Positions 7,938 through 31,616 of a stretch of DNA of 64,000 nt are shown here, piece after piece (the stretch's first letter is position 1; every line of letters starts with the position of its first letter). The translations under genes were made by a program, and so were the position numbers. The stretch comes from Escherichia phage dune, in sequence record MN850636.1; one strand, written 5' to 3'. The notes beneath the pieces were generated by a model that saw only the letters and a list, made by a program, of their open reading frames with translations, made no database searches and had not been told where the DNA came from.

Positions 7938-8723
7938 TTAGTTCTTTGCGTCTAAGAAGGTAACTTCTGGTGAAGAGAAAACTGTCTTGATATCCTCATC
8001 AGTTCTTGCATAGATATAAGTATCTGCATCACTGCCAAATGTTACTGCAATCCTGTGATTGCTCTTCGACAGGTGGGTAACTAGAGCGTTACTTAGAGAC
8101 ATCTTTTCAACCGGAGGGTTACTTTGATGTATCTTACCTTTTCTTCGTCTGAAGAGGGTAACTGCGTTATCCGTGAACACAACTACACCTGCAAAGTATT
8201 CTGGTTCACAGTAGTTTTTCCAACCTGAGAGTAACTTGTGGTACATCTCTCCTTCATAGACATACAGATAGACATCTACACTCTTCATCACCTGATTGAT
8301 GATAACTATGACAGCTTGAGGGTCCAGCCCACCAATACCTGCACCAATCATAGGTAGACCAACTTTCTTCAACTGATTCACTTCACAGTATCTGTTAAGC
8401 TGTTTCAAAGATGACTCTAAAGCACTGTATCGTGCATCTTTACCAGTCTTAAGCTGAGTGTAAAGGTTAGCTATACGACCTTGTTTTAAACGTGCTACAG
8501 AGAAATTACCCAGTAAATTTTCACAGGGTTTGTGGCCTATACCACCTGCATATAGATAAACTTCTGTATCGGTCTCATATGCTTTTGGGTAAAGTTTAGA
8601 AATCTTGTCAGCGATACCTGCACCCATTAAATTCATACAGTTGCAACCGTGACCAATGATGTCAAACTTACCTTTATCAAATGCGGCAAAGATATCGCCA
8701 TTGATGATTTTTACAATACCCAT
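7938..8723 (-). CDS. Macro-domain protein (ADP-ribose binding or hydrolase fold) with about 100 aa C-terminal extension
   Basis: 261 aa; IVKIINGDIFAA, DIIGHGCNCMNLMGAGIADKI and VGLPMIGAGIGGLD resemble macro-domain signature blocks; GGGAGAG RBS. Confidence 0.65.
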   Translation of the reverse strand: MGIVKIINGDIFAAFDKGKFDIIGHGCNCMNLMGAGIADKISKLYPKAYETDTEVYLYAGGIGHKPCENLLGNFSVARLKQGRIANLYTQLKTGKDARYSALESSLKQLNRYCEVNQLKKVGLPMIGAGIGGLDPQAVIVIINQVMKSVDVYLYVYEGEMYHKLLSGWKNYCEPEYFAGVVVFTDNAVTLFRRRKGKIHQSNPPVEKMSLSNALVTHLSKSNHRIAVTFGSDADTYIYARTDEDIKTVFSSPEVTFLDAKN

Positions 8724-9144: not shown

Positions 9145-9484
9145 AGTTTACCTTCTCAGTTAGTTCATATAAATCAACATGCTCAATACTATCAATGTTG
9201 ATACCAATCTTTTTGAAGCGTTCTATCACTTCGTTGTCAGTCATCCATATCAGACACCAATGATTGTGGATGGATTCTTCAAGAAGGTCAACACAATCTT
9301 TAAAAGTTTTTGTATCACTTCTTGTTCCGACCACTGCGATTGTTCCATATAGCCACTTACCATTGCCATAAGATACTTGTGCTACACCAACTTCTTTATC
9401 GTTCTCGTAGTAAACGGCTACAAAGTCTCTTCCATTAATCTGCATTTGTAAGTTCCTCTGTTGGTAATTCACCATTTTCAGCAA
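9119..9484 (-). CDS. Hypothetical protein (start uncertain)
   Basis: 121 aa ORF; overlaps upstream ORF. Confidence 0.4.
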   Translation of the reverse strand: MLKMVNYQQRNLQMQINGRDFVAVYYENDKEVGVAQVSYGNGKWLYGTIAVVGTRSDTKTFKDCVDLLEESIHNHWCLIWMTDNEVIERFKKIGINIDSIEHVDLYELTEKVNYESNTSQR

Positions 9485-9749
9485 AGTATTGGAGGTACGG
9501 CAACAACTCTTTTACCTGTTCTTGATTGAGCTTCATTCTTTGATTGCCTACAAAATCTTTACCAACTAATGCTGGGATATCAAGTGTTTTCCAGCCACCA
9601 TCTAGGTACTGAACAGAGACCTCTTTAGCACCTAACCAGATACATGGTTCGTATGATGAACTCTCTTGTAAAGTACAAATTTCCCCTTTAGCATCTTTAA
9701 ATTCTGCATAAGAAAATCCACGATTTGTTGGCTGGAATTGCATAATCAT
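9435..9749 (-). CDS. Hypothetical protein
   Basis: 104 aa ORF. Confidence 0.4.
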   Translation of the reverse strand: MIMQFQPTNRGFSYAEFKDAKGEICTLQESSSYEPCIWLGAKEVSVQYLDGGWKTLDIPALVGKDFVGNQRMKLNQEQVKELLPYLQYFAENGELPTEELTNAD

Positions 9750-15955: not shown

Positions 15956-16132
15956 TTACTTATTAAACATTTTACCAGAACCACCACAAATAGGGCAACA
16001 ACCTGCTCTTGTGTACCCTTCCCCGTTGCAGTAATCACACTTCTTGTGCTCTGCATAGTACTTGCAAAGAAGGTAAACAAATACTGCTACACTACCAAGT
16101 GACAGTAAAATTTCTATCCAATATGCTTGCAT
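15956..16132 (-). CDS. Small membrane-anchored zinc-ribbon protein (not in ORF track, under 60 aa)
   Basis: Hand translation MQAYWIEILLSLGSVAVFVYLLCKYYAEHKKCDYCNGEGYTRAGCCPICGGSGKMFNK; GAGAGGTGAG RBS. Confidence 0.35.
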   Translation of the reverse strand: MQAYWIEILLSLGSVAVFVYLLCKYYAEHKKCDYCNGEGYTRAGCCPICGGSGKMFNK

Positions 16133-16449
16133 GACTCACCTCTCATATTCTTGTAAAGGATAAAGCTTCTGTCATGGACGATACTTGTAGACACTGCAAA
16201 GTTACTTTCAAGCATCTGTTTGTTTGGATTGTAGAAGCTTTCTTTAAACTCGTCAAGTGCAAATTGGTGATGTTGTGGAAGACCTTTTACACAGATTTTT
16301 ATTGTGATTGCTGCTGCAATCTTGCCAGTCAGTTCTTCTTTAGCTGCTACTAAAATTTTGTTAAGGAACTTTTTACCATCTTCAGGTTTCTTAATGTTCT
16401 CCCAACGTTCTTCTAGGACAACGTTAATGTTCATTTCTTTGATTTTCAT
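16114..16449 (-). CDS. Hypothetical protein
   Basis: 111 aa ORF. Confidence 0.4.
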   Translation of the reverse strand: MKIKEMNINVVLEERWENIKKPEDGKKFLNKILVAAKEELTGKIAAAITIKICVKGLPQHHQFALDEFKESFYNPNKQMLESNFAVSTSIVHDRSFILYKNMRGESCKHIG

Positions 16450-16461
16450 AATCTTCTCCAG

Positions 16462-16488
16462 AAATTAAAAAGGCTCCCGTAGGAGCCT
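16462..16488 (-). terminator. Rho-independent terminator after NAMPT-like gene
   Basis: AGGCTCC-TACG-GGAGCCT plus TTTTT on minus strand. Confidence 0.55.
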
Positions 16489-16502
16489 CTTATCATATAC
16501 TT

Positions 16503-18284
16503 TTAAAGCTGCTTGTCAATATTATTTCGAATATCTCCAAGAGTTGTATAACCGAACTGCTCAGAGTCGCTAAAGACTAAACGTAAAGCACAAGCTTGGT
16601 GGTCAAGTACATCTGCAAAACTCTGGAATCCATAGCCATCTACAGCTTTCAGCTTATCACCATCCCACATAGGTGCTACACCACCAAAGGCAGATTTCTT
16701 AACACCACTATCTGTTTTAGGGTCTTTTGCAAGCATAATCTCTTTACCACCAATGCTTGCAAGAGTTGCTTTGACAGCAAATGCAAAGGTGTCACGAGTC
16801 ATGTACTGGTAAGTGTAAGAGCCTACACCAAACACTACGTTAGAGCTTGCAAAACCCATTTCATACAGACGCTTCAGGATTTCGTTTGCACGTTCCAGCG
16901 TGATAGAGTCACCATAGATAAGGTCGATGTGCTCATCCAGTACCTTAAACCCTTTAGAGTTAATAGTCCCTCCGAAGATGTTGTACAGTGTCTTAATAGC
17001 TCCATCAATCTCTGCTACAGGACGTGTTACAACGTTTGCAGAGCCAACCATATAAGCATTTTTCAACATCACTGTATCAGCAACTTCAAAGTCTTCTCTG
17101 TCAACAACCATTTCGTAGCCTTCTGACAGTAGCCATCCAGCAATACCATAGCTGACGTTTTCAAGCTTCATGTTCAGAACAGCATTCAGCATTGTGTCAC
17201 TGGCTTCCAGCTTACTAAGGTGCTCATAATAAGCCTTTTTAGCGCACTCTAAGTGGATTGCTTTATAACCTGTGACAATGTGTACAGGGTCTCCAGAGTC
17301 AGGACGAATTACCAGTTTGCCATCACGTTCCATAATTTCTTTACGGAGTGCTGGTAAGATTTCTGACACAGTTCTCCAGAAGTTATAAGTATCTGAAACA
17401 ATACTTGCAATACCCGTTGGGTAAGTTTCTGTTAAGAAACGACGGAAGGTTTGTAACTCACCTTTAAAGCGTCTTTCTTCTTCAATCAACTCATTGCCAC
17501 CTTCCCAAGCAATGTTTGCACACATTACAGAGTGCTCAGTGGCTGGTACAGAGCTACCAATATCAGAGATTGGGTAGGACTGTCCATAGATTCGTTTAGC
17601 CGTATACACAGCAGGGAAGCTATCAGTTCCTTTAAAGCTGGTTAAGTGACCTACAGCGTTAAATGCGTCATCAGTAAAGCCGGACATACCACGCATAGCA
17701 AAGTCATGGCACTGATAAGGTAAATGTAAGTCGTTGTCGCAAGTAAGGTCAGCCCACTTCTTACAGATACGTTTGTAGTGCAATGCGATAGTTGCAATGG
17801 TGCAAGCCTTCCAAATCTCAGCAGAGAAAGCATCTTCCAGATAACCTGCTACCCAATGGAAACCTGAAACAGTGTTCTGGAAGACAATCATTGGGACACG
17901 CATCGGGACAACTGTGCCTTCTTCTACAGCGTATACTTCAACTGGCAGATAACCTAAGTCGTGAAGTGCTTCCCAATGCTCTCGACCGATAGCATCTTTA
18001 CCCAGAACACCATTCATGACTTCTAAGATTTCGTCAATTGCTTCTTTTTTATCACGTTCAAAGAAAGTGGCGTTCCAGTGGTCTATCAAGTAATCTTTAA
18101 CAAAACGTTGAATACCAAAAGCCACTACACCATCAATTGCTAAAGGGCTGTTAAACCATTTATCACTACGTGGTGTCAGGTTCAGCATAAGGTACTGTGT
18201 GGCATCTGGATACTGATATATATGTGATGCCTTGTAAGCATCTGCATTAAGACCTGCTGGTACTGCGTAAAGTGACTTACTCAT
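16503..18284 (-). CDS. Nicotinamide phosphoribosyltransferase-like enzyme (NAMPT / NadV / Namat-like)
   Basis: 593 aa; YKASHIYQYPDAT and VIRPDSGDP resemble conserved NAMPT blocks. Confidence 0.8.
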   Translation of the reverse strand: MSKSLYAVPAGLNADAYKASHIYQYPDATQYLMLNLTPRSDKWFNSPLAIDGVVAFGIQRFVKDYLIDHWNATFFERDKKEAIDEILEVMNGVLGKDAIGREHWEALHDLGYLPVEVYAVEEGTVVPMRVPMIVFQNTVSGFHWVAGYLEDAFSAEIWKACTIATIALHYKRICKKWADLTCDNDLHLPYQCHDFAMRGMSGFTDDAFNAVGHLTSFKGTDSFPAVYTAKRIYGQSYPISDIGSSVPATEHSVMCANIAWEGGNELIEEERRFKGELQTFRRFLTETYPTGIASIVSDTYNFWRTVSEILPALRKEIMERDGKLVIRPDSGDPVHIVTGYKAIHLECAKKAYYEHLSKLEASDTMLNAVLNMKLENVSYGIAGWLLSEGYEMVVDREDFEVADTVMLKNAYMVGSANVVTRPVAEIDGAIKTLYNIFGGTINSKGFKVLDEHIDLIYGDSITLERANEILKRLYEMGFASSNVVFGVGSYTYQYMTRDTFAFAVKATLASIGGKEIMLAKDPKTDSGVKKSAFGGVAPMWDGDKLKAVDGYGFQSFADVLDHQACALRLVFSDSEQFGYTTLGDIRNNIDKQL

Positions 18285-18298
18285 ATTTTATCTCTCTC

Positions 18299-18790
18299 TT
18301 AGTTATGTCTTGCAAACTCACCATGAAGTTCTATTCGCTTTTTAATTACAGCTTCTTTTGCTTCTTCTACCGTTTTAAATCTTCCACAAAAGTATTCTTT
18401 ATGGTAAAGCATGACTCTTGCTTTGTAAAGACCTGTTTGTTTACAAAAACTTACACCCTTCACACCAGTTTTATTATTCTTGTGTATGCCTCTATTCCTC
18501 TGATTTTGTGACTTTGTACTAAGTCTTAAGTTCTCCAACTTATTATTAGTTTTATCAAGGTCTATGTGGTCTATCTCATATCCACTTGGTATCTCACCTC
18601 CAGACATAATCCATGCAATATTATGTGCATAGTACCTCTTCTTATTTATCTGAACTTGGATATAACCCTTCTTAGACCTTGTGCCAGCAACATTGCCAGC
18701 AATAGCGGTATTGCAAAGGGTTACTTTCCAAATTAGTAAACCTGTCTCTGGTTCGTATCTTAGGTATTTTTCGAAGTAACCCTTATCCAT
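18299..18790 (-). CDS. HNH homing endonuclease with AP2-type DNA-binding region
   Basis: 163 aa; YEPETGLLIW, EIDHIDLDKTNN..N HNH motif, GVKGV..GLYKARV AP2-like block; paralogs at 31092 and 41195. Confidence 0.75.
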   Translation of the reverse strand: MDKGYFEKYLRYEPETGLLIWKVTLCNTAIAGNVAGTRSKKGYIQVQINKKRYYAHNIAWIMSGGEIPSGYEIDHIDLDKTNNKLENLRLSTKSQNQRNRGIHKNNKTGVKGVSFCKQTGLYKARVMLYHKEYFCGRFKTVEEAKEAVIKKRIELHGEFARHN

Positions 18791-18798
18791 TTTAATAC

Positions 18799-19701
18799 CT
18801 AATCCAAATTTGCTACAGTAACTTGACTGTAATGTGTTAAGCCACGGTCTTTAGCTTCGCCTAAAGAGTTTGTAGTGTAAATATGGTCGATACCATTGTC
18901 AAGAAGGTTTTCAACATCTTTAGAGAAGATACCATGTGTTACATAAAGTTCCACACGTTTTGCACCTGCTTCACGAAGATGTTTCGCTGCTTCTATGAAG
19001 GTTCGACCACCATCACAGATATCATCCAGAATCATGACGGTTTTATCTGTCAAATCAACATCATCAAGGATTCGCATACCAGTAATTTCACCAGTCTTAA
19101 GGTTACGCACTTTAGACATTGTGATGTATGGTTTATCCACCTCTTTAGCAGTCTCTGCAATCTTCTTAGCAGCACCTGCATCTGGGGCTACTAAGTAATC
19201 AATCAGTGGGTCATTTGCATAGTGGACTGCAATTTCCTTTTGAGGAATACTCTGGAAGCAATTGAAAAGGTTATCTGGAACGTAACTATGAGGGTCAACT
19301 GCACAGACTGCATCAAAACCCATTGCATTCACCTGTTGTGCAAACACTTTCAAAGCTGCTGCATCACCTTTAAACATGTGACGGTCATAACGTGCATTTG
19401 GCAAATAGTAAAAGATAGCAGTCTTCATAGCAAACTTATGCGGCACTAAGTCATCAATTGCTTCTTTAGCAAGTGCCACAGCAAACAATGTGTCCTTATC
19501 ATAACCTTTTACAATCATAATCACATTATTGATGGATGATGCTGCATAAGCAGTAAAATCAACAAACTCTGGTGAAAAGTGTCCACCAATCTCACCAGAA
19601 GGGAATTGGATGATGTTAAACTCTTCTTCATGAGTCCCTTTAGTTGGTGAATGAACTGTAACACGGATAGATGTTTTCATAGTTTTCTCTCTCTCAATCA
19701 A
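18799..19701 (-). CDS. Ribose-phosphate pyrophosphokinase-like protein (PRPP synthetase fold; Adps-like candidate)
   Basis: 300 aa; VMILDDICDGGRT matches type I PRTase / PRPP-binding loop; next to NAMPT-like gene. Confidence 0.6.
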   Translation of the reverse strand: MIEREKTMKTSIRVTVHSPTKGTHEEEFNIIQFPSGEIGGHFSPEFVDFTAYAASSINNVIMIVKGYDKDTLFAVALAKEAIDDLVPHKFAMKTAIFYYLPNARYDRHMFKGDAAALKVFAQQVNAMGFDAVCAVDPHSYVPDNLFNCFQSIPQKEIAVHYANDPLIDYLVAPDAGAAKKIAETAKEVDKPYITMSKVRNLKTGEITGMRILDDVDLTDKTVMILDDICDGGRTFIEAAKHLREAGAKRVELYVTHGIFSKDVENLLDNGIDHIYTTNSLGEAKDRGLTHYSQVTVANLD

Positions 19702-19972
19702 AAGTTACGTTTGTTACTGCCATTGCAGATTTGCATTTTGCAGGGTCTACAACGTGATAAAGTACACTACAGTTACCTGTGCTGTCTGGTACAGGTTTAA
19801 CCCATTGTTGCTTGACAGTTGGTTCTCCTAAATCTTTGTAAGAACCATCTGTAAAATTGTTTATCATCTCAAGTGCAATTGGTTCTGGAACATGACCACG
19901 TATCATGTACATTTCACAACCATTACCACCCTCACTGACCAGTGGTAAAATCTCCCACTTCTCTTTAGCCAT
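19694..19972 (-). CDS. Hypothetical protein
   Basis: 92 aa ORF. Confidence 0.4.
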   Translation of the reverse strand: MAKEKWEILPLVSEGGNGCEMYMIRGHVPEPIALEMINNFTDGSYKDLGEPTVKQQWVKPVPDSTGNCSVLYHVVDPAKCKSAMAVTNVTFD

Positions 19973-20480
19973 TGTAAGTTGCCCTATAAACTGTCTCGAA
20001 CTTCAACAGGAGAGATATTGCCAAATCTGTATAGTTGTTGTCAAGCACATCTGGCATATTATTTTTGATATATTTCTCTTGCTCTTCATAGGTCATCTTA
20101 GGAGTTCTTAGAAGGTTATCTCCTTGCTTCTGGTTATCAAGTTTAGTCTGGATAAACCAGTTTGCACAGTGATGCTCACCACCCTTTGTAACAGGTTTGT
20201 GGTGGCCTAATGTGAAGGATTGACTACCTGTGTATCTGCAAAGTTTATTGAGTACTGTAATGGTGTTCTTCACAACAAAACATTCATACAGGTTGTCTAT
20301 GGTGTAGTGTGGGTAGTAGCGGAATAGTGCTCTTTCACGAGTGCTATCACGATTCCAGAGAATCATGTTATTAGAGTTTGAAGGGTCATATTGGTGGGAG
20401 TCAATGAACTCTTGACGTTCCTCAAAGCTGAGTCTTAACACTGACATTGCAGCAGAACGTTTCAGGTTTGACAGGTACAT
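19965..20480 (-). CDS. Hypothetical protein
   Basis: 171 aa ORF. Confidence 0.4.
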   Translation of the reverse strand: MYLSNLKRSAAMSVLRLSFEERQEFIDSHQYDPSNSNNMILWNRDSTRERALFRYYPHYTIDNLYECFVVKNTITVLNKLCRYTGSQSFTLGHHKPVTKGGEHHCANWFIQTKLDNQKQGDNLLRTPKMTYEEQEKYIKNNMPDVLDNNYTDLAISLLLKFETVYRATYNG

Positions 20481-20497
20481 ATTATCTCCAAAATAAA

Positions 20498-20523
20498 AAG
20501 GGAACCTTTACAGTTCCCTTATA
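20498..20523 (-). terminator. Rho-independent terminator
   Basis: AGGGAAC-loop-GTTCCCT followed by TTTTT on minus strand. Confidence 0.5.
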
Positions 20524-21860: not shown

Positions 21861-21919
21861 CTAGTTACCTCACCAATACATATAAAAGTTCTGTAAACCT
21901 TTTCTTCGAATTGTTTTGC

Positions 21920-22666: not shown

Positions 22667-24811
22667 TTACATAGAAACCCTGTCACGAATCTCGGCAATT
22701 TTTGCATCATTCATTCGGGATTCACCTTTAATCTTAGTCCACCCAAGATACCCACACACTCTGTTAATCACAGAGATGTCATGTGAATGGCAAGCCTCAC
22801 ATTCTTCAACATCAGCCTTTGGTCTGTTGCCACAATGTTCGCAGATTGCTAAGTCAAAGTTAAGTCCTTGATAAAAACCCTTCAACATCCCTCTTGTAAT
22901 ACAACTTTTAAGTGCTGGTAAGTTTTCTGGGTTAGCCACCCTTACATACTGGATTCTGCCACCTCTACAGATATGGAAGAATGGTTCTTCTAAGTCCTGC
23001 TTCTCAAATGGTGAGATGTCTGCTGCAACATTCATATGGAAGCTATTTGTAAAGTATTCCTTATCAGAAACACCTTTGATAACGCCAAACATATCTCTGA
23101 ACTGTTTTAGCTGAGTTCCACAAAGTGATTCTGCTGGAGTGCCATAGACTGCATATAAGAAGCCATCTTCATTTTTAAACTCTTCAGTTTTCATGTTAAT
23201 GTATGCCAGAACATCGTATGCAAAACTACAGCTTCCAAGTTCATGAAGTCGTTTACCTTCAGCAAGAACAGATAGCTCATCAAGTGCAGTAACCCCAAAA
23301 GAAGCTGTGAAGGACTTCACGATATCCCAGCCAACCTTATCAGTAGGTTTCTTATTCCCTTTGTACAGACCGCCTTGTGTGAATGCGAGAGGGTTAGAAC
23401 TTGCTGGCATATTAGCAATCATTTCGTAGCGTTTCTTGTGGAAACTACGAATCATCTCTAGGTACTTATCAAGCTCTTTCCAGAAATCTAAACCATTCTC
23501 TTTAGAATACTGGTAAAGCATTGGTAAGTTCAAAGACACAGCACCAATGTTAGCACGACCTACATAGAACTCTTCCCCATTCTCGTTAAGATATGGTGAT
23601 AAGAAGGCTCTACAACCCATCGGGGAAATTACCTTACCAGAACGCTCAAAAGCCTCTGCTACAGCACCATGACCAGATACACTTAAGAAATCTGGATACA
23701 TTGCTTTAGAGCAACACTCAATAGCTTTACTGTACAGGTGTCCTTGACAGATATTCTCATCGTGTCTCTTCTGGTCATAAATATAAACCAGTTTAGGGAA
23801 TACAACAGGTTTCTTGCTCTTACCTTGTCCATTCATACGAACATCTAGGAGAGTACTTGCAATCATGTATTGTAGTCGGTTATCTTCATTGGACATATCT
23901 GAGTCAAGTAACCCGAATGTCAAAGTTGTAAATGCAAAATCCCCACGACTACAAGGTACAGTGTTTAGTTTCATTTCAAGTGACTGGAAACCTTGAGTCA
24001 GTTCAATCTGTAGCTGCTCCATGACATAATTGTGGTAATGTTCTTTAGGAATACCATAAGACGCTGCTTTCTCAGCATGATAGCGTAGAGACTTCTTAGC
24101 ATACGGCACAAGTACCTTATCAATCTCTGCTAAAGTAAAGCCACCAAATTGCTGTGCAGTTGCTGAAAGAACTACATCACCAATAACCTGTAAGGCCGAC
24201 AGCACAGACTTGGGTTCACAATATTCAATGCCAGACATTTCAAAGCCGCCTTTCAGGACTTTACCAATGTCAAACAGGCAACAGTTGATACCACCAAAAA
24301 TTAGGTCTCTTAAATCATGGATATAGGTAAACCCTTTTTCAATGGCTTCCAGTTCCTCTGGTGTTAAATGATACTGTTTAAAGATTTCTTTAGTCAGATA
24401 ACCACGGATAATCGAACCTTTTGTAGAAATTAAACTGCTGTCAAAGTTAGCATTCTCTCTGTCACCTAAGAAAAGTGTATCTTTAGTTTTCTGGTAGAGT
24501 TCATCCCAATTTTGAGCAACCTCTTTACGGTAATTTCTATATGTTGAGTAAGACTCATAAATCTCGTGATTGACTTCTGCCAAAGCACCCTCAACAATAC
24601 TGTGAATATCATTTACTGAAATGAGTAAATTATTCTGCTTAGTGGACTTTACCAGAATCCTCATAAATGCTGACTCAAGAGCTTGGGTAACATCTGGTGG
24701 GAGTTCTTTATACCCAACCCTATTAGCTGACTTTGTGACTGCTGCTAAAACTTTTTTGATATCAGGTTCTTCGAGTGAGCCATTCTTTTTAATAATCTGT
24801 ACTTTGTTCAT
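22667..24811 (-). CDS. nrdD: Anaerobic ribonucleoside-triphosphate reductase (class III)
   Basis: 714 aa; C-terminal glycyl-radical motif RVCGYLG; Cys cluster CEHCG..CEAC; RBS upstream. Confidence 0.9.
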   Translation of the reverse strand: MNKVQIIKKNGSLEEPDIKKVLAAVTKSANRVGYKELPPDVTQALESAFMRILVKSTKQNNLLISVNDIHSIVEGALAEVNHEIYESYSTYRNYRKEVAQNWDELYQKTKDTLFLGDRENANFDSSLISTKGSIIRGYLTKEIFKQYHLTPEELEAIEKGFTYIHDLRDLIFGGINCCLFDIGKVLKGGFEMSGIEYCEPKSVLSALQVIGDVVLSATAQQFGGFTLAEIDKVLVPYAKKSLRYHAEKAASYGIPKEHYHNYVMEQLQIELTQGFQSLEMKLNTVPCSRGDFAFTTLTFGLLDSDMSNEDNRLQYMIASTLLDVRMNGQGKSKKPVVFPKLVYIYDQKRHDENICQGHLYSKAIECCSKAMYPDFLSVSGHGAVAEAFERSGKVISPMGCRAFLSPYLNENGEEFYVGRANIGAVSLNLPMLYQYSKENGLDFWKELDKYLEMIRSFHKKRYEMIANMPASSNPLAFTQGGLYKGNKKPTDKVGWDIVKSFTASFGVTALDELSVLAEGKRLHELGSCSFAYDVLAYINMKTEEFKNEDGFLYAVYGTPAESLCGTQLKQFRDMFGVIKGVSDKEYFTNSFHMNVAADISPFEKQDLEEPFFHICRGGRIQYVRVANPENLPALKSCITRGMLKGFYQGLNFDLAICEHCGNRPKADVEECEACHSHDISVINRVCGYLGWTKIKGESRMNDAKIAEIRDRVSM

Positions 24812-30594: not shown

Positions 30595-31095
30595 TCAAGC
30601 ACAATTTGCTTTCATGACCTTATGGATTCTTTTTTCAGCATCTTCATAAGTTTCTTTAGTAATAAACTTAATTGCTGCAATATTGGCATTGTAGAAGAGT
30701 CTGAGCTTCGAGTCAATCCTTTTTGTCATTACATCGAACTTATGTTGAAGGTTTGCTTCACCATAAACTAGACCACCTTTTGTGTAGTAGGTTTGGATAA
30801 TGTAAAAATCAAAAGATTCCTTTCCAAAGCTCTCAATATCTTTTTTAATATACTCAGAAGAAGTCTCGTAAGTCATCCAATCACTTTCCTTAGTAACTAC
30901 CTTCTTCCGAGTCTTCCCAGCAACTTTTCTTTTGGTCACACTGTTAAGCTGTTTCTTACCCAAATAGTACTGTCCAGTCTTTTTGCAGTACACTAGGTAG
31001 ACAAAACCAAAGTGCTTTGCTGGGTCAACTTCACCACATAGTGAAACCCAATGTCCATATTCAGGACAATTGCCAAAACCTTTTATTTTTCTCAT
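30595..31095 (-). CDS. Putative GIY-YIG family endonuclease
   Basis: 166 aa; FVYLVYCKKTGQYYLGKK resembles the GIY..YIG module. Confidence 0.5.
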   Translation of the reverse strand: MRKIKGFGNCPEYGHWVSLCGEVDPAKHFGFVYLVYCKKTGQYYLGKKQLNSVTKRKVAGKTRKKVVTKESDWMTYETSSEYIKKDIESFGKESFDFYIIQTYYTKGGLVYGEANLQHKFDVMTKRIDSKLRLFYNANIAAIKFITKETYEDAEKRIHKVMKANCA

Positions 31096-31616
31096 TCATA
31101 AGCTTCTCCGTGATTTGTAAACTCTTTATGGAGTTCTTCTCTTTTCTTTTTGACAACTAATTCAGCCTCAGCGATAGAGTCAAATAAACCTAGATGATAG
31201 CAAACTTTATTATGCTTGACTTGTGCAGCCCATCTACCTCTTTGCTTATGGTAATATACACCCTTCACACCAGATTTATTATCTCTTCTTTTGGCTGCAT
31301 TACAGTTATTATCTGACCTGCTACACTCTCTCAAATTGTCGAACCAGTTGTCGTGCCTGATACCATTCTTATGGTCAACAAATTTTGGTAGGTATCCTTT
31401 CATATACAAGAATGCCAGTCTGTGTGCTGCATATCTTTTCCCGAAGAGTTTTATGTAGATATAACCACTATGATGTTTAAGACCCGCTACTGAGCCAGCT
31501 TTGGCCTTACCTTTTCTATTAACTAACCAAGTAAAGACCCCTGTTTCGGGGTCATAGTGCAGGTATTCTTTAAGAGTTTGTTGGGTTAACATTTGGTGTC
31601 CATCCATACTTATCAA
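31092..31616 (-). CDS. HNH homing endonuclease with AP2-type domain (paralog 2)
   Basis: 174 aa; YDPETGVFTW, VDHKNG..DN..N, GVKGVYYH..GRWAAQV. Confidence 0.7.
   Translation of the reverse strand: MISMDGHQMLTQQTLKEYLHYDPETGVFTWLVNRKGKAKAGSVAGLKHHSGYIYIKLFGKRYAAHRLAFLYMKGYLPKFVDHKNGIRHDNWFDNLRECSRSDNNCNAAKRRDNKSGVKGVYYHKQRGRWAAQVKHNKVCYHLGLFDSIAEAELVVKKKREELHKEFTNHGEAYE

Follow-up and report, generated by a model that had tools for sequence, protein, structure and literature searches.

The locus and its genomic setting

The window analysed here is a 64,000-nucleotide (nt) stretch of Escherichia phage dune (record MN850636.1), and the locus under study, at 16503-19680, carries an adps gene, an HNH endonuclease gene and a namat gene. 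Adps and Namat are the two enzymes of NAD+ reconstitution pathway 1 (NARP1), a published phage counter-defence system, and the locus is very probably the NARP1 operon of a Felixounavirus, with the HNH gene as a selfish passenger. The three genes are intact open reading frames (ORFs) arranged head to tail on the minus strand; 8 nt lie between the stop codon of adps and the HNH gene, and 14 nt between the end of the HNH gene and the start codon of namat. The original prediction, made from the letters of the DNA, had placed an HNH gene exactly between a NAMPT-like and a PRPS-like gene, and this arrangement is borne out, with family matches far beyond chance.

The window belongs to a Felixounavirus (Felix O1-like myophage) and shares ~96% identity with Escherichia phage radambza. 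The gene neighbourhood fits this genus, with rIIA and rIIB on one side of the locus and NrdG and NrdD on the other. Megablast of positions 16000-20500 matched 258 phage records, the best of them 95-96% identical over the full length; nearly all are Felixounavirus or other Ounavirinae, from Escherichia, Salmonella, Shigella and Citrobacter hosts. At least positions 1-32000 are collinear with Escherichia phage JohannRWettstein (Bas63, MZ501086; accession obtained from the supplement of the BASEL paper), the phage in which NARP1 was discovered.

Namat

The namat gene (16503-18284, minus strand) encodes a NAMPT-like protein of 593 amino acids (aa), assigned as a nicotinamide ADP-ribose transferase by profile matches, orthology to Bas63 gp80 and conserved motifs. 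It matches Pfam NAPRTase (1.3e-34) and NAMPT_N, PHROG 448 (2.5e-201) and NCBIfam PRK09198 (469 bits), and over all 593 residues it is 98% identical in aa sequence to its syntenic orthologue gp80 (bas63_0080). The catalytic core aligns with SpbetaL1 Namat (PDB 9W5W, E = 3.7e-128), and the residues tested in this alignment were SpbetaL1 F189, R192, D215, R306 and D308 together with the catalytic histidine. The aligned core motifs of the window protein are HDFAMRG (193-199), GTDS (219-222), ATEHS (248-252, with catalytic His251) and RPDSGDP (327-333), the last lying within VIRPDSGDP at residues 325-333.

Two clamp elements have been described for Namat (PMC12774641). The selectivity-clamp helix (SCH) has the motif GSXΦXΦXΦTRD, with X aromatic, and is missing from Nampt; the selectivity-clamp loop (SCL) has R, K or Y as its third residue, and where this is K or Y the fourth residue stacks on the adenine. 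Bas63 Namat is described there as having the SCL type in which K is followed by a stacking residue. In the window protein the SCH motif reads GSYTYQYMTRD (residues 488-498), and the SCL, S40-D41-K42-W43, is the same as in Bas63 Namat. Catalytic core and adenine-clamp motif are thus shared with SpbetaL1 Namat (PDB 9W5W/9W5X), from which the window protein differs by a lineage-specific insertion of 77 aa (residues 351-427; 17004-17234, minus strand). This insertion, at which the alignment to 9W5W splits (query 350/428), lies just past the RPDSGDP loop, is without a Pfam match and is common to Bas63.

Adps

The PRPS-like ORF was listed at 18799-19701 as 300 aa read from an in-frame upstream TTG, and it contains VMILDDICDGGRT. 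The true start of adps is likely the ATG at 19680, which gives 293 aa, because all relatives annotate that start; the ORF first described thus stands, but its end coordinate was 21 nt too long. The gene (18799-19680, minus strand) is assigned as an ADP-ribose pyrophosphokinase by profile matches, orthology to Bas63 gp79 and conserved residues. Its product matches Pfam Pribosyltran and Pribosyl_synth as well as PHROG 619 (2.2e-98), and it is 80% identical in aa sequence over 293 residues to the syntenic orthologue gp79 (bas63_0079).

Several comparisons set this protein apart from phosphoribosyl pyrophosphate (PRPP) synthetases (Prs). Against TIGR01251 it scores 127 bits (cut-off 113), whereas against the NCBIfam Prs equivalog models it reaches 93-106 bits, below every one of their cut-offs, which are ~296 bits or more. 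It is nearer to the Adps proteins of ICP1 (3e-35) and Thalassavirus (2e-36) than to the solved Prs proteins, of which the best match scores 1.6e-19. The alignment to human PRPS1 stops at chain residue 290 of 318, with the query nearly exhausted. By these scores and the extent of the alignment, Adps appears distinct from bona fide Prs and to be without the C-terminal alpha11-alpha12 regulatory module. The profile searches proposed with the original prediction return both families by name, NAPRTase/NAMPT_N and Pribosyltran/Pribosyl_synth, with the Adps partner below the Prs equivalog cut-offs.

Active-site residues were mapped through the ICP1 Adps sequence from GenBank, solved Adps structures being lacking in the PDB copy searched. 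The ICP1 Adps structures, alongside which a K185A mutant is described, highlight, besides the catalytic K185, the residues R87, H121, D161, D212, D213 and D216 and a remodelled PP loop whose first residues are C215-D216-G217 (NAR 2026, PMC13586617). In the alignment, ICP1 R87, H121, D161, K185, D212, D213, C215, D216 and F221 correspond to window R97, H131, D167, K190, D219, D220, C222, D223 and F228, and the PP loop reads DDICDGGRTF. The two proteins are distant (about 32-39% identical) and share the catalytic lysine, the Asp-Asp pair and the C-D-G PP loop.

Sliding-window comparison reveals a sharply bounded island of divergence over the N-terminal domain of Adps, at roughly 19250-19700. Two allele types are present, one (the MKTSIRV allele) in the window, radambza, REP9 and wV8 and the other in Bas63, Felix O1 and AYO145A, with 60-70% nt identity between types in genomes that are ~95% identical elsewhere. 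Synonymous sites are saturated and dN, the nonsynonymous divergence, is ~0.24; since dN/dS, its ratio to the synonymous divergence (dS), is also low where computable, the alleles are old and constrained by purifying selection. On the same grounds, saturated dS and low dN/dS where computable, the divergence was not attributed to positive selection, an explanation that was rejected. These two N-terminal alleles go beyond the literature consulted, as do the 77-aa insertion of Namat and a macro-domain protein described below; the alleles and the macro-domain protein are minor novelties.

The HNH gene and its insertion site

The gene between adps and namat (18299-18790, minus strand; 492 nt) encodes a free-standing HNH homing endonuclease of 163 aa with an HNH_3 domain and an AP2-like C-terminal region. 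It matches Pfam HNH_3 (2.7e-19, positions 1-46 of 46) and PHROG 99 (1.4e-69), with AP2 below threshold, and its nuclease motif is intact (AH55N ... DH75 ... N82N83 ... N87). Megablast with the HNH gene by itself found 61 records, one copy in each, at 91-100% identity. A query across both junctions found 243 related records, 61 of which match over their full length as a single piece. Among the remaining rows that were sampled, most consist of two pieces with a uniform span of 846-849 nt, which represents a common empty site, and a few divergent records match on one flank only. Carriers include Felix O1 (ORF128), the Mooglevirus Moogle and phiSUSP1, which we take to represent a third Ounavirinae genus besides Felixounavirus and Mooglevirus; Bas63 is without the gene.

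The junctions were aligned for nine loci, four with the HNH gene and five without. In the empty-site allele adps and namat are parted by a spacer of roughly 45 nt (TATAGGGGCTTAAAAGCCCCATTTTGAGAGAG), in which the hairpin GGGGCTTAAAAGCCCC precedes ATTTT and the ribosome-binding site of namat, GAGAGAGAT. This hairpin has a folding energy of -12.8 kcal/mol (z = -2.4) and is labelled as a terminator in the record of phage AYO145A. In HNH-bearing genomes GTATTAAA and the HNH ORF stand in its place, and the ribosome-binding site GAGAGAGA is kept. Since the hairpin is conserved across genera (Bas63, Sf17), the empty site represents a genuine allele rather than the scar of a deletion. Among the nine loci only a few differences close to the junction follow the presence of the HNH gene; they concern the stop of adps (TAG against TGA/TAA), the nucleotide preceding the ATG of namat, and the second codon of namat (AGT against ACT).

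Between the window and Moogle the HNH gene is 91.5% identical in nt sequence, against 74-87% for the flanking genes; between the window and Felix O1 it is 92.5% identical. The type of Adps N-terminal allele is independent of whether the HNH gene is present. Lateral spread, whether through homing or through recombination, is favoured over vertical inheritance with repeated loss by three observations: cross-genus identity is higher in the HNH gene than in its flanks, the hairpin allele is conserved, and the presence of the gene is uncoupled from Adps allele type. The opposite history, with an HNH gene that is as old as the operon and was lost repeatedly, or one that was domesticated for an operon function, is unlikely. 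It would account for the gene occupying exactly the same site in three Ounavirinae genera (Felixounavirus, Mooglevirus and that of phiSUSP1), and for an ORF that is intact in all four translated copies. Simple deletion of the HNH gene could not, however, recreate the hairpin found at the empty site in different genera, and an ancestral origin would sit poorly with the excess of identity over the flanks and with the uncoupling from Adps allele type. This reading is further opposed by the Bas63 pathway, which works without the gene.

Judged on these comparisons, the HNH gene is an ordinary polymorphic free-standing homing-endonuclease gene that behaves as a mobile selfish element; cleavage and homing are predicted, with indirect support from the cross-genus identity, which exceeds that of the flanks. 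Like other phage endonuclease genes of this kind (HNH_3 plus AP2-like, PHROG 99; compare the Seg and Mob genes of T4), it is intergenic, intact, and present in some and absent from other near-identical genomes. The original prediction had gone further, suggesting that the endonuclease drives mobility of the locus. This finds no support, because adps and namat hold the same syntenic position in every relative regardless of the HNH gene; what appears mobile is the HNH insertion itself (61 of 243 records).

Other signals at the insertion were considered. Flank identity to Moogle declines from 83-87% near the junction to 74-75% farther away, a gradient that could have been left by co-conversion; it was discarded because HNH-less Sf17 has the same gradient, which thus reflects gene conservation. 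A perfect 9-bp inverted repeat (18760-18802, minus strand), formed by TTAGGTATT at 18794-18802 and AATACCTAA at 18760-18768, takes in both the stop codon of adps and the Shine-Dalgarno sequence of the HNH gene, whose ATG falls in the loop. It is conserved in radambza and Felix O1 and partly in Moogle. Speculatively, this repeat is a candidate translational control element that may throttle HNH translation. Folding of this repeat into a hairpin that sequesters the ribosome-binding site at the HNH start was rejected, its folding energy being like that of shuffled sequence (z = -0.72).

Further endonuclease genes are found elsewhere in the window. A second gene of the HNH_3 plus AP2 type, at 31092-31616 (minus strand), is a paralogue of the HNH gene at the locus (39% aa identity) and is absent in Bas63. 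It is directly adjoined by an ORF for a SegE-like GIY-YIG endonuclease (30595-31095, minus strand), so that a tandem pair of the homing-endonuclease type lies beside an exonuclease gene. The anaerobic ribonucleotide reductase gene nrdD (22667-24811, minus strand) is uninterrupted in the window and encodes 714 aa; in Bas63 it is split by a 742-nt insertion bearing the homing endonuclease gene bas63_0068, another difference between these genomes in endonuclease presence or absence.

The locus as a NARP1 operon

NARP1, consisting of Adps and Namat, was discovered in Bas63 as genes 79-80, which overcome the SIR2-HerA defence; their deletion leads to ~20-fold lower plating and deeper NAD+ loss (Osterman et al., bioRxiv 10.1101/2024.02.11.579819). 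In the same study, counter-defence by Bas63 persisted in a host without pncC and nadR, and ADPR-PP, the pyrophosphorylated form of ADP-ribose (ADPR), was seen only in defence-bearing cells infected by wild-type Bas63. The purified SpbetaL1 homologue of Adps converted ADPR and ATP to ADPR-PP, with no product in a PRPP-synthetase control, and its partner enzyme converted ADPR-PP and nicotinamide to NAD+. Osterman et al. recognised NARP1 by a PRPS-like gene of the Adps clade that has a homologue of Namat within 10 genes. In the window the two genes are parted by a single gene of 492 nt, and their products are 80% and 98% identical to those of the validated Bas63 pair, with synteny kept.

By orthology, synteny and the published Adps and Namat signatures, the locus is, with high confidence, a NARP1 counter-defence operon, as the original prediction had proposed in suggesting NAD+ reconstitution by an Adps and a Namat. 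In the mechanism envisaged, a host defence that depletes NAD+ (SIR2-HerA, type I Thoeris, DSR1/2, SEFIR and others) would cleave NAD+ to ADPR and nicotinamide. Adps (18799-19680) would move the beta,gamma-pyrophosphate of ATP to ADPR, giving ADPR-PP, and Namat (16503-18284) would couple ADPR-PP with nicotinamide, so that NAD+ is regenerated. The HNH gene (18299-18790) would be co-transcribed with the operon and take no part in the pathway, replacing a small conserved hairpin in about a quarter of relatives.

Some points weigh against this assignment. The function of the window pair is predicted from orthology and conserved residues, and the cleavage and homing that would make the HNH gene a selfish passenger are likewise read from sequence. 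The published biochemistry comes from the SpbetaL1 and ICP1 homologues, not from purified Bas63 proteins. Residues 1-150 of the window Adps are only 69% identical in aa sequence to Bas63, the window having the other old allele; confidence in the NARP1 assignment is not higher mainly because the tested phage, Bas63, carries a different Adps allele. The ICP1 residues F18 and F92, which stack on the adenine, align to the non-aromatic H17 and M102 (with F103 adjacent), although the N-terminal alignment is poor and unreliable at these positions; in ICP1 Adps, F18 is contributed by the neighbouring protomer (PMC13586617).

GenBank annotation follows a different route, conventional salvage, in which a true PRPP synthetase and a true NAMPT make nicotinamide mononucleotide (NMN) that reaches NAD+ via the host enzymes NadR or PncC. 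The family names in Pfam, PHROG and NCBIfam are indeed those of Prs and NAMPT, and Namat homologues keep some PRPP-dependent NMN synthesis in vitro (PMC12774641). Salvage was, however, excluded experimentally for the Bas63 orthologues by the independence from pncC and nadR, the detection of ADPR-PP in infected cells and the SpbetaL1 control. For the window itself, it is opposed by the adenine-clamp motif of Namat, which Nampt lacks, by Adps scores of 93-106 bits against Prs equivalog cut-offs of ~296 or more, and by the fact that 97% of Adps-clade proteins adjoin a Namat (Osterman et al.). This alternative, which had been left standing beside NAD+ reconstitution in the original prediction, is accordingly very improbable. 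A NARP2-type pathway, the arrangement of phage KVP40 in which a Nampt acts with a bifunctional Nmnat/Nudix protein, has in its favour that the Felix O1 record names its gene nadV by analogy with KVP40. It is scarcely credible given the Adps partner and the Namat motif of the window and the finding that NARP2 Nampts form a separate clade in phages without Adps (Osterman et al.); nor is any Nmnat annotated in Bas63 between 40 and 87 kb, a span that includes the counterpart of window 1-32 kb.

Read as NARP1, the locus resembles that of Bas63 in genus, genomic position (rIIA to one side, NrdG to the other), orientation and the 77-aa insertion of Namat. It differs in having the 492-nt HNH gene where Bas63 has a 45-nt hairpin spacer, and in its Adps N-terminal allele (69% aa identity over residues 1-150). 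In Bas63, moreover, namat is followed immediately downstream by an extra small gene, bas63_0081, which has no counterpart in the window (16447-16450). Felix O1 (NC_005282) has the identical three-gene order, ORF127 (Prs-like), ORF128 (HNH) and nadV, with the HNH gene at the same site and the 3' part of adps 99% identical to the window; it differs in carrying the Bas63-type Adps N-terminal allele, and its genes are annotated as an ordinary Prs and NadV. NARP1-AP of Vibrio phage Gary and related Thalassaviruses (Adps, Adpp, Namat) also has a third gene between adps and namat, but there the middle gene encodes a macro-domain phosphatase and here an HNH endonuclease. As a separate observation, ICP1_2005_A has a 37-codon ORF annotated between adps and namat (3607-3720), so that the adps-namat spacer holds different small inserts by phage lineage: an HNH gene, a macro-domain phosphatase or a tiny ORF.

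NARP1 in the window is already known, as a published pathway in the same genus as the discovery phage. The window adds no new system; its value is for annotation. The labels ribose-phosphate pyrophosphokinase and nicotinamide phosphoribosyltransferase are still in use in more than 240 Felix O1-like genomes, candidates for therapy and biocontrol among them, and with an HNH gene in about a quarter of genomes, operon detectors based on adjacency could miss or split NARP1. The pathway itself is a general counter-defence that undoes the effect of any NAD+-cleaving immunity rather than targeting one system. Small leads for NARP1 research are offered by the two Adps N-terminal alleles and by a macro-domain gene elsewhere in the window.

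A macro-domain protein and a possible extension of the pathway

The macro-domain gene (7938-8723, minus strand), the counterpart of bas63_0095, is 7.8 kb away from NARP1 and encodes 261 aa, with a match to Pfam Macro (1.5e-7), membership of PHROG 335 ('phosphatase') and a C-terminal extension of roughly 105 aa. The phosphatase encoded between adps and namat in Vibrio phage Pontus belongs to the same PHROG 335 (1.5e-50) and is 27% identical to the window protein across the whole macro domain (E = 2e-13). The coronavirus Mac1 and OARD1/TARG1 proteins match the window protein better than Poa1p, and orthology to Poa1p was rejected, the match (E about 0.02) covering the N-terminal 40 residues only.

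Adpp of Vibrio phage Gary converts ADPR-1''-phosphate to ADPR, letting NARP1 defeat aRES, and the survey for Adpp covered only two genes around NARP1 (Osterman et al. 2026, bioRxiv 10.64898/2026.01.28.702374). Because of this scope, a gene placed like that of the window would have been missed. Within two genes of NARP1 in the window, Pfam and PHROG searches found no macro domain, the neighbours being the HNH gene and uncharacterised ORFs; the gene at 7938-8723 is the only macro-domain gene found in the window, and the linkage that defines NARP1-AP is absent. The PHROG 335-type macro family is represented in 2785 records of phages, among them the T-even Tk.4 genes without a visible NARP1 link, and since the family is so widespread, linkage of the window protein to NARP1 is not established. 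Functional coupling of the two is only a possibility raised by sequence similarity.

In an extended version of the pathway, the unlinked macro-domain enzyme would feed ADPR to Adps, the HNH insertion would shift the Adps:Namat ratio, and the Adps alleles would reflect escape from a host factor. If true, the macro-domain protein could yield ADPR from ADPR-1''-phosphate or other ADPR derivatives, with protection against aRES-type defences. A change in the expression ratio could follow from HNH insertion because the conserved hairpin between adps and namat is removed. Taken as a whole, this extension is doubtful.

Transcription unit and neighbouring ORFs

Pattern matching identified terminator-like sites on both sides of the locus. 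A hairpin followed by a T-run (16468-16491, minus strand; 10-bp stem with 5 GC pairs) lies directly downstream of namat and probably marks the 3' end of the transcription unit. Upstream, a terminator-like hairpin at 20498-20520 (minus strand) parts the unit from the preceding genes, and the annotations of phages AYO145A and Moogle show a terminator equivalent to it; both window sites are pattern matches only. Between adps and namat in the window, pattern matching found no terminator-like site. The two hairpins bracket a 171-aa ORF, a 92-aa ORF, adps, the HNH gene and namat. Two further differences from Bas63 lie outside these limits: bas63_0072 has no counterpart in the window (21882-21885), and window positions 9458-9739 (ORF 9435-9749) have no close match in Bas63.

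Upstream of adps, and in the same apparent unit, are two conserved ORFs on the minus strand. One (19965-20480; 171 aa, PHROG 3500) contains a weak HNH-like motif, GHHKPVTKGGEHHCANW, and the other (19694-19972; 92 aa, PHROG 4726) is immediately upstream of adps. Pfam and PDB searches with the two ORFs gave no informative match, and matches of the ORFs upstream of adps to protein A were discarded as repeat or composition artefacts. Both ORFs are present upstream of adps in all relatives inspected.

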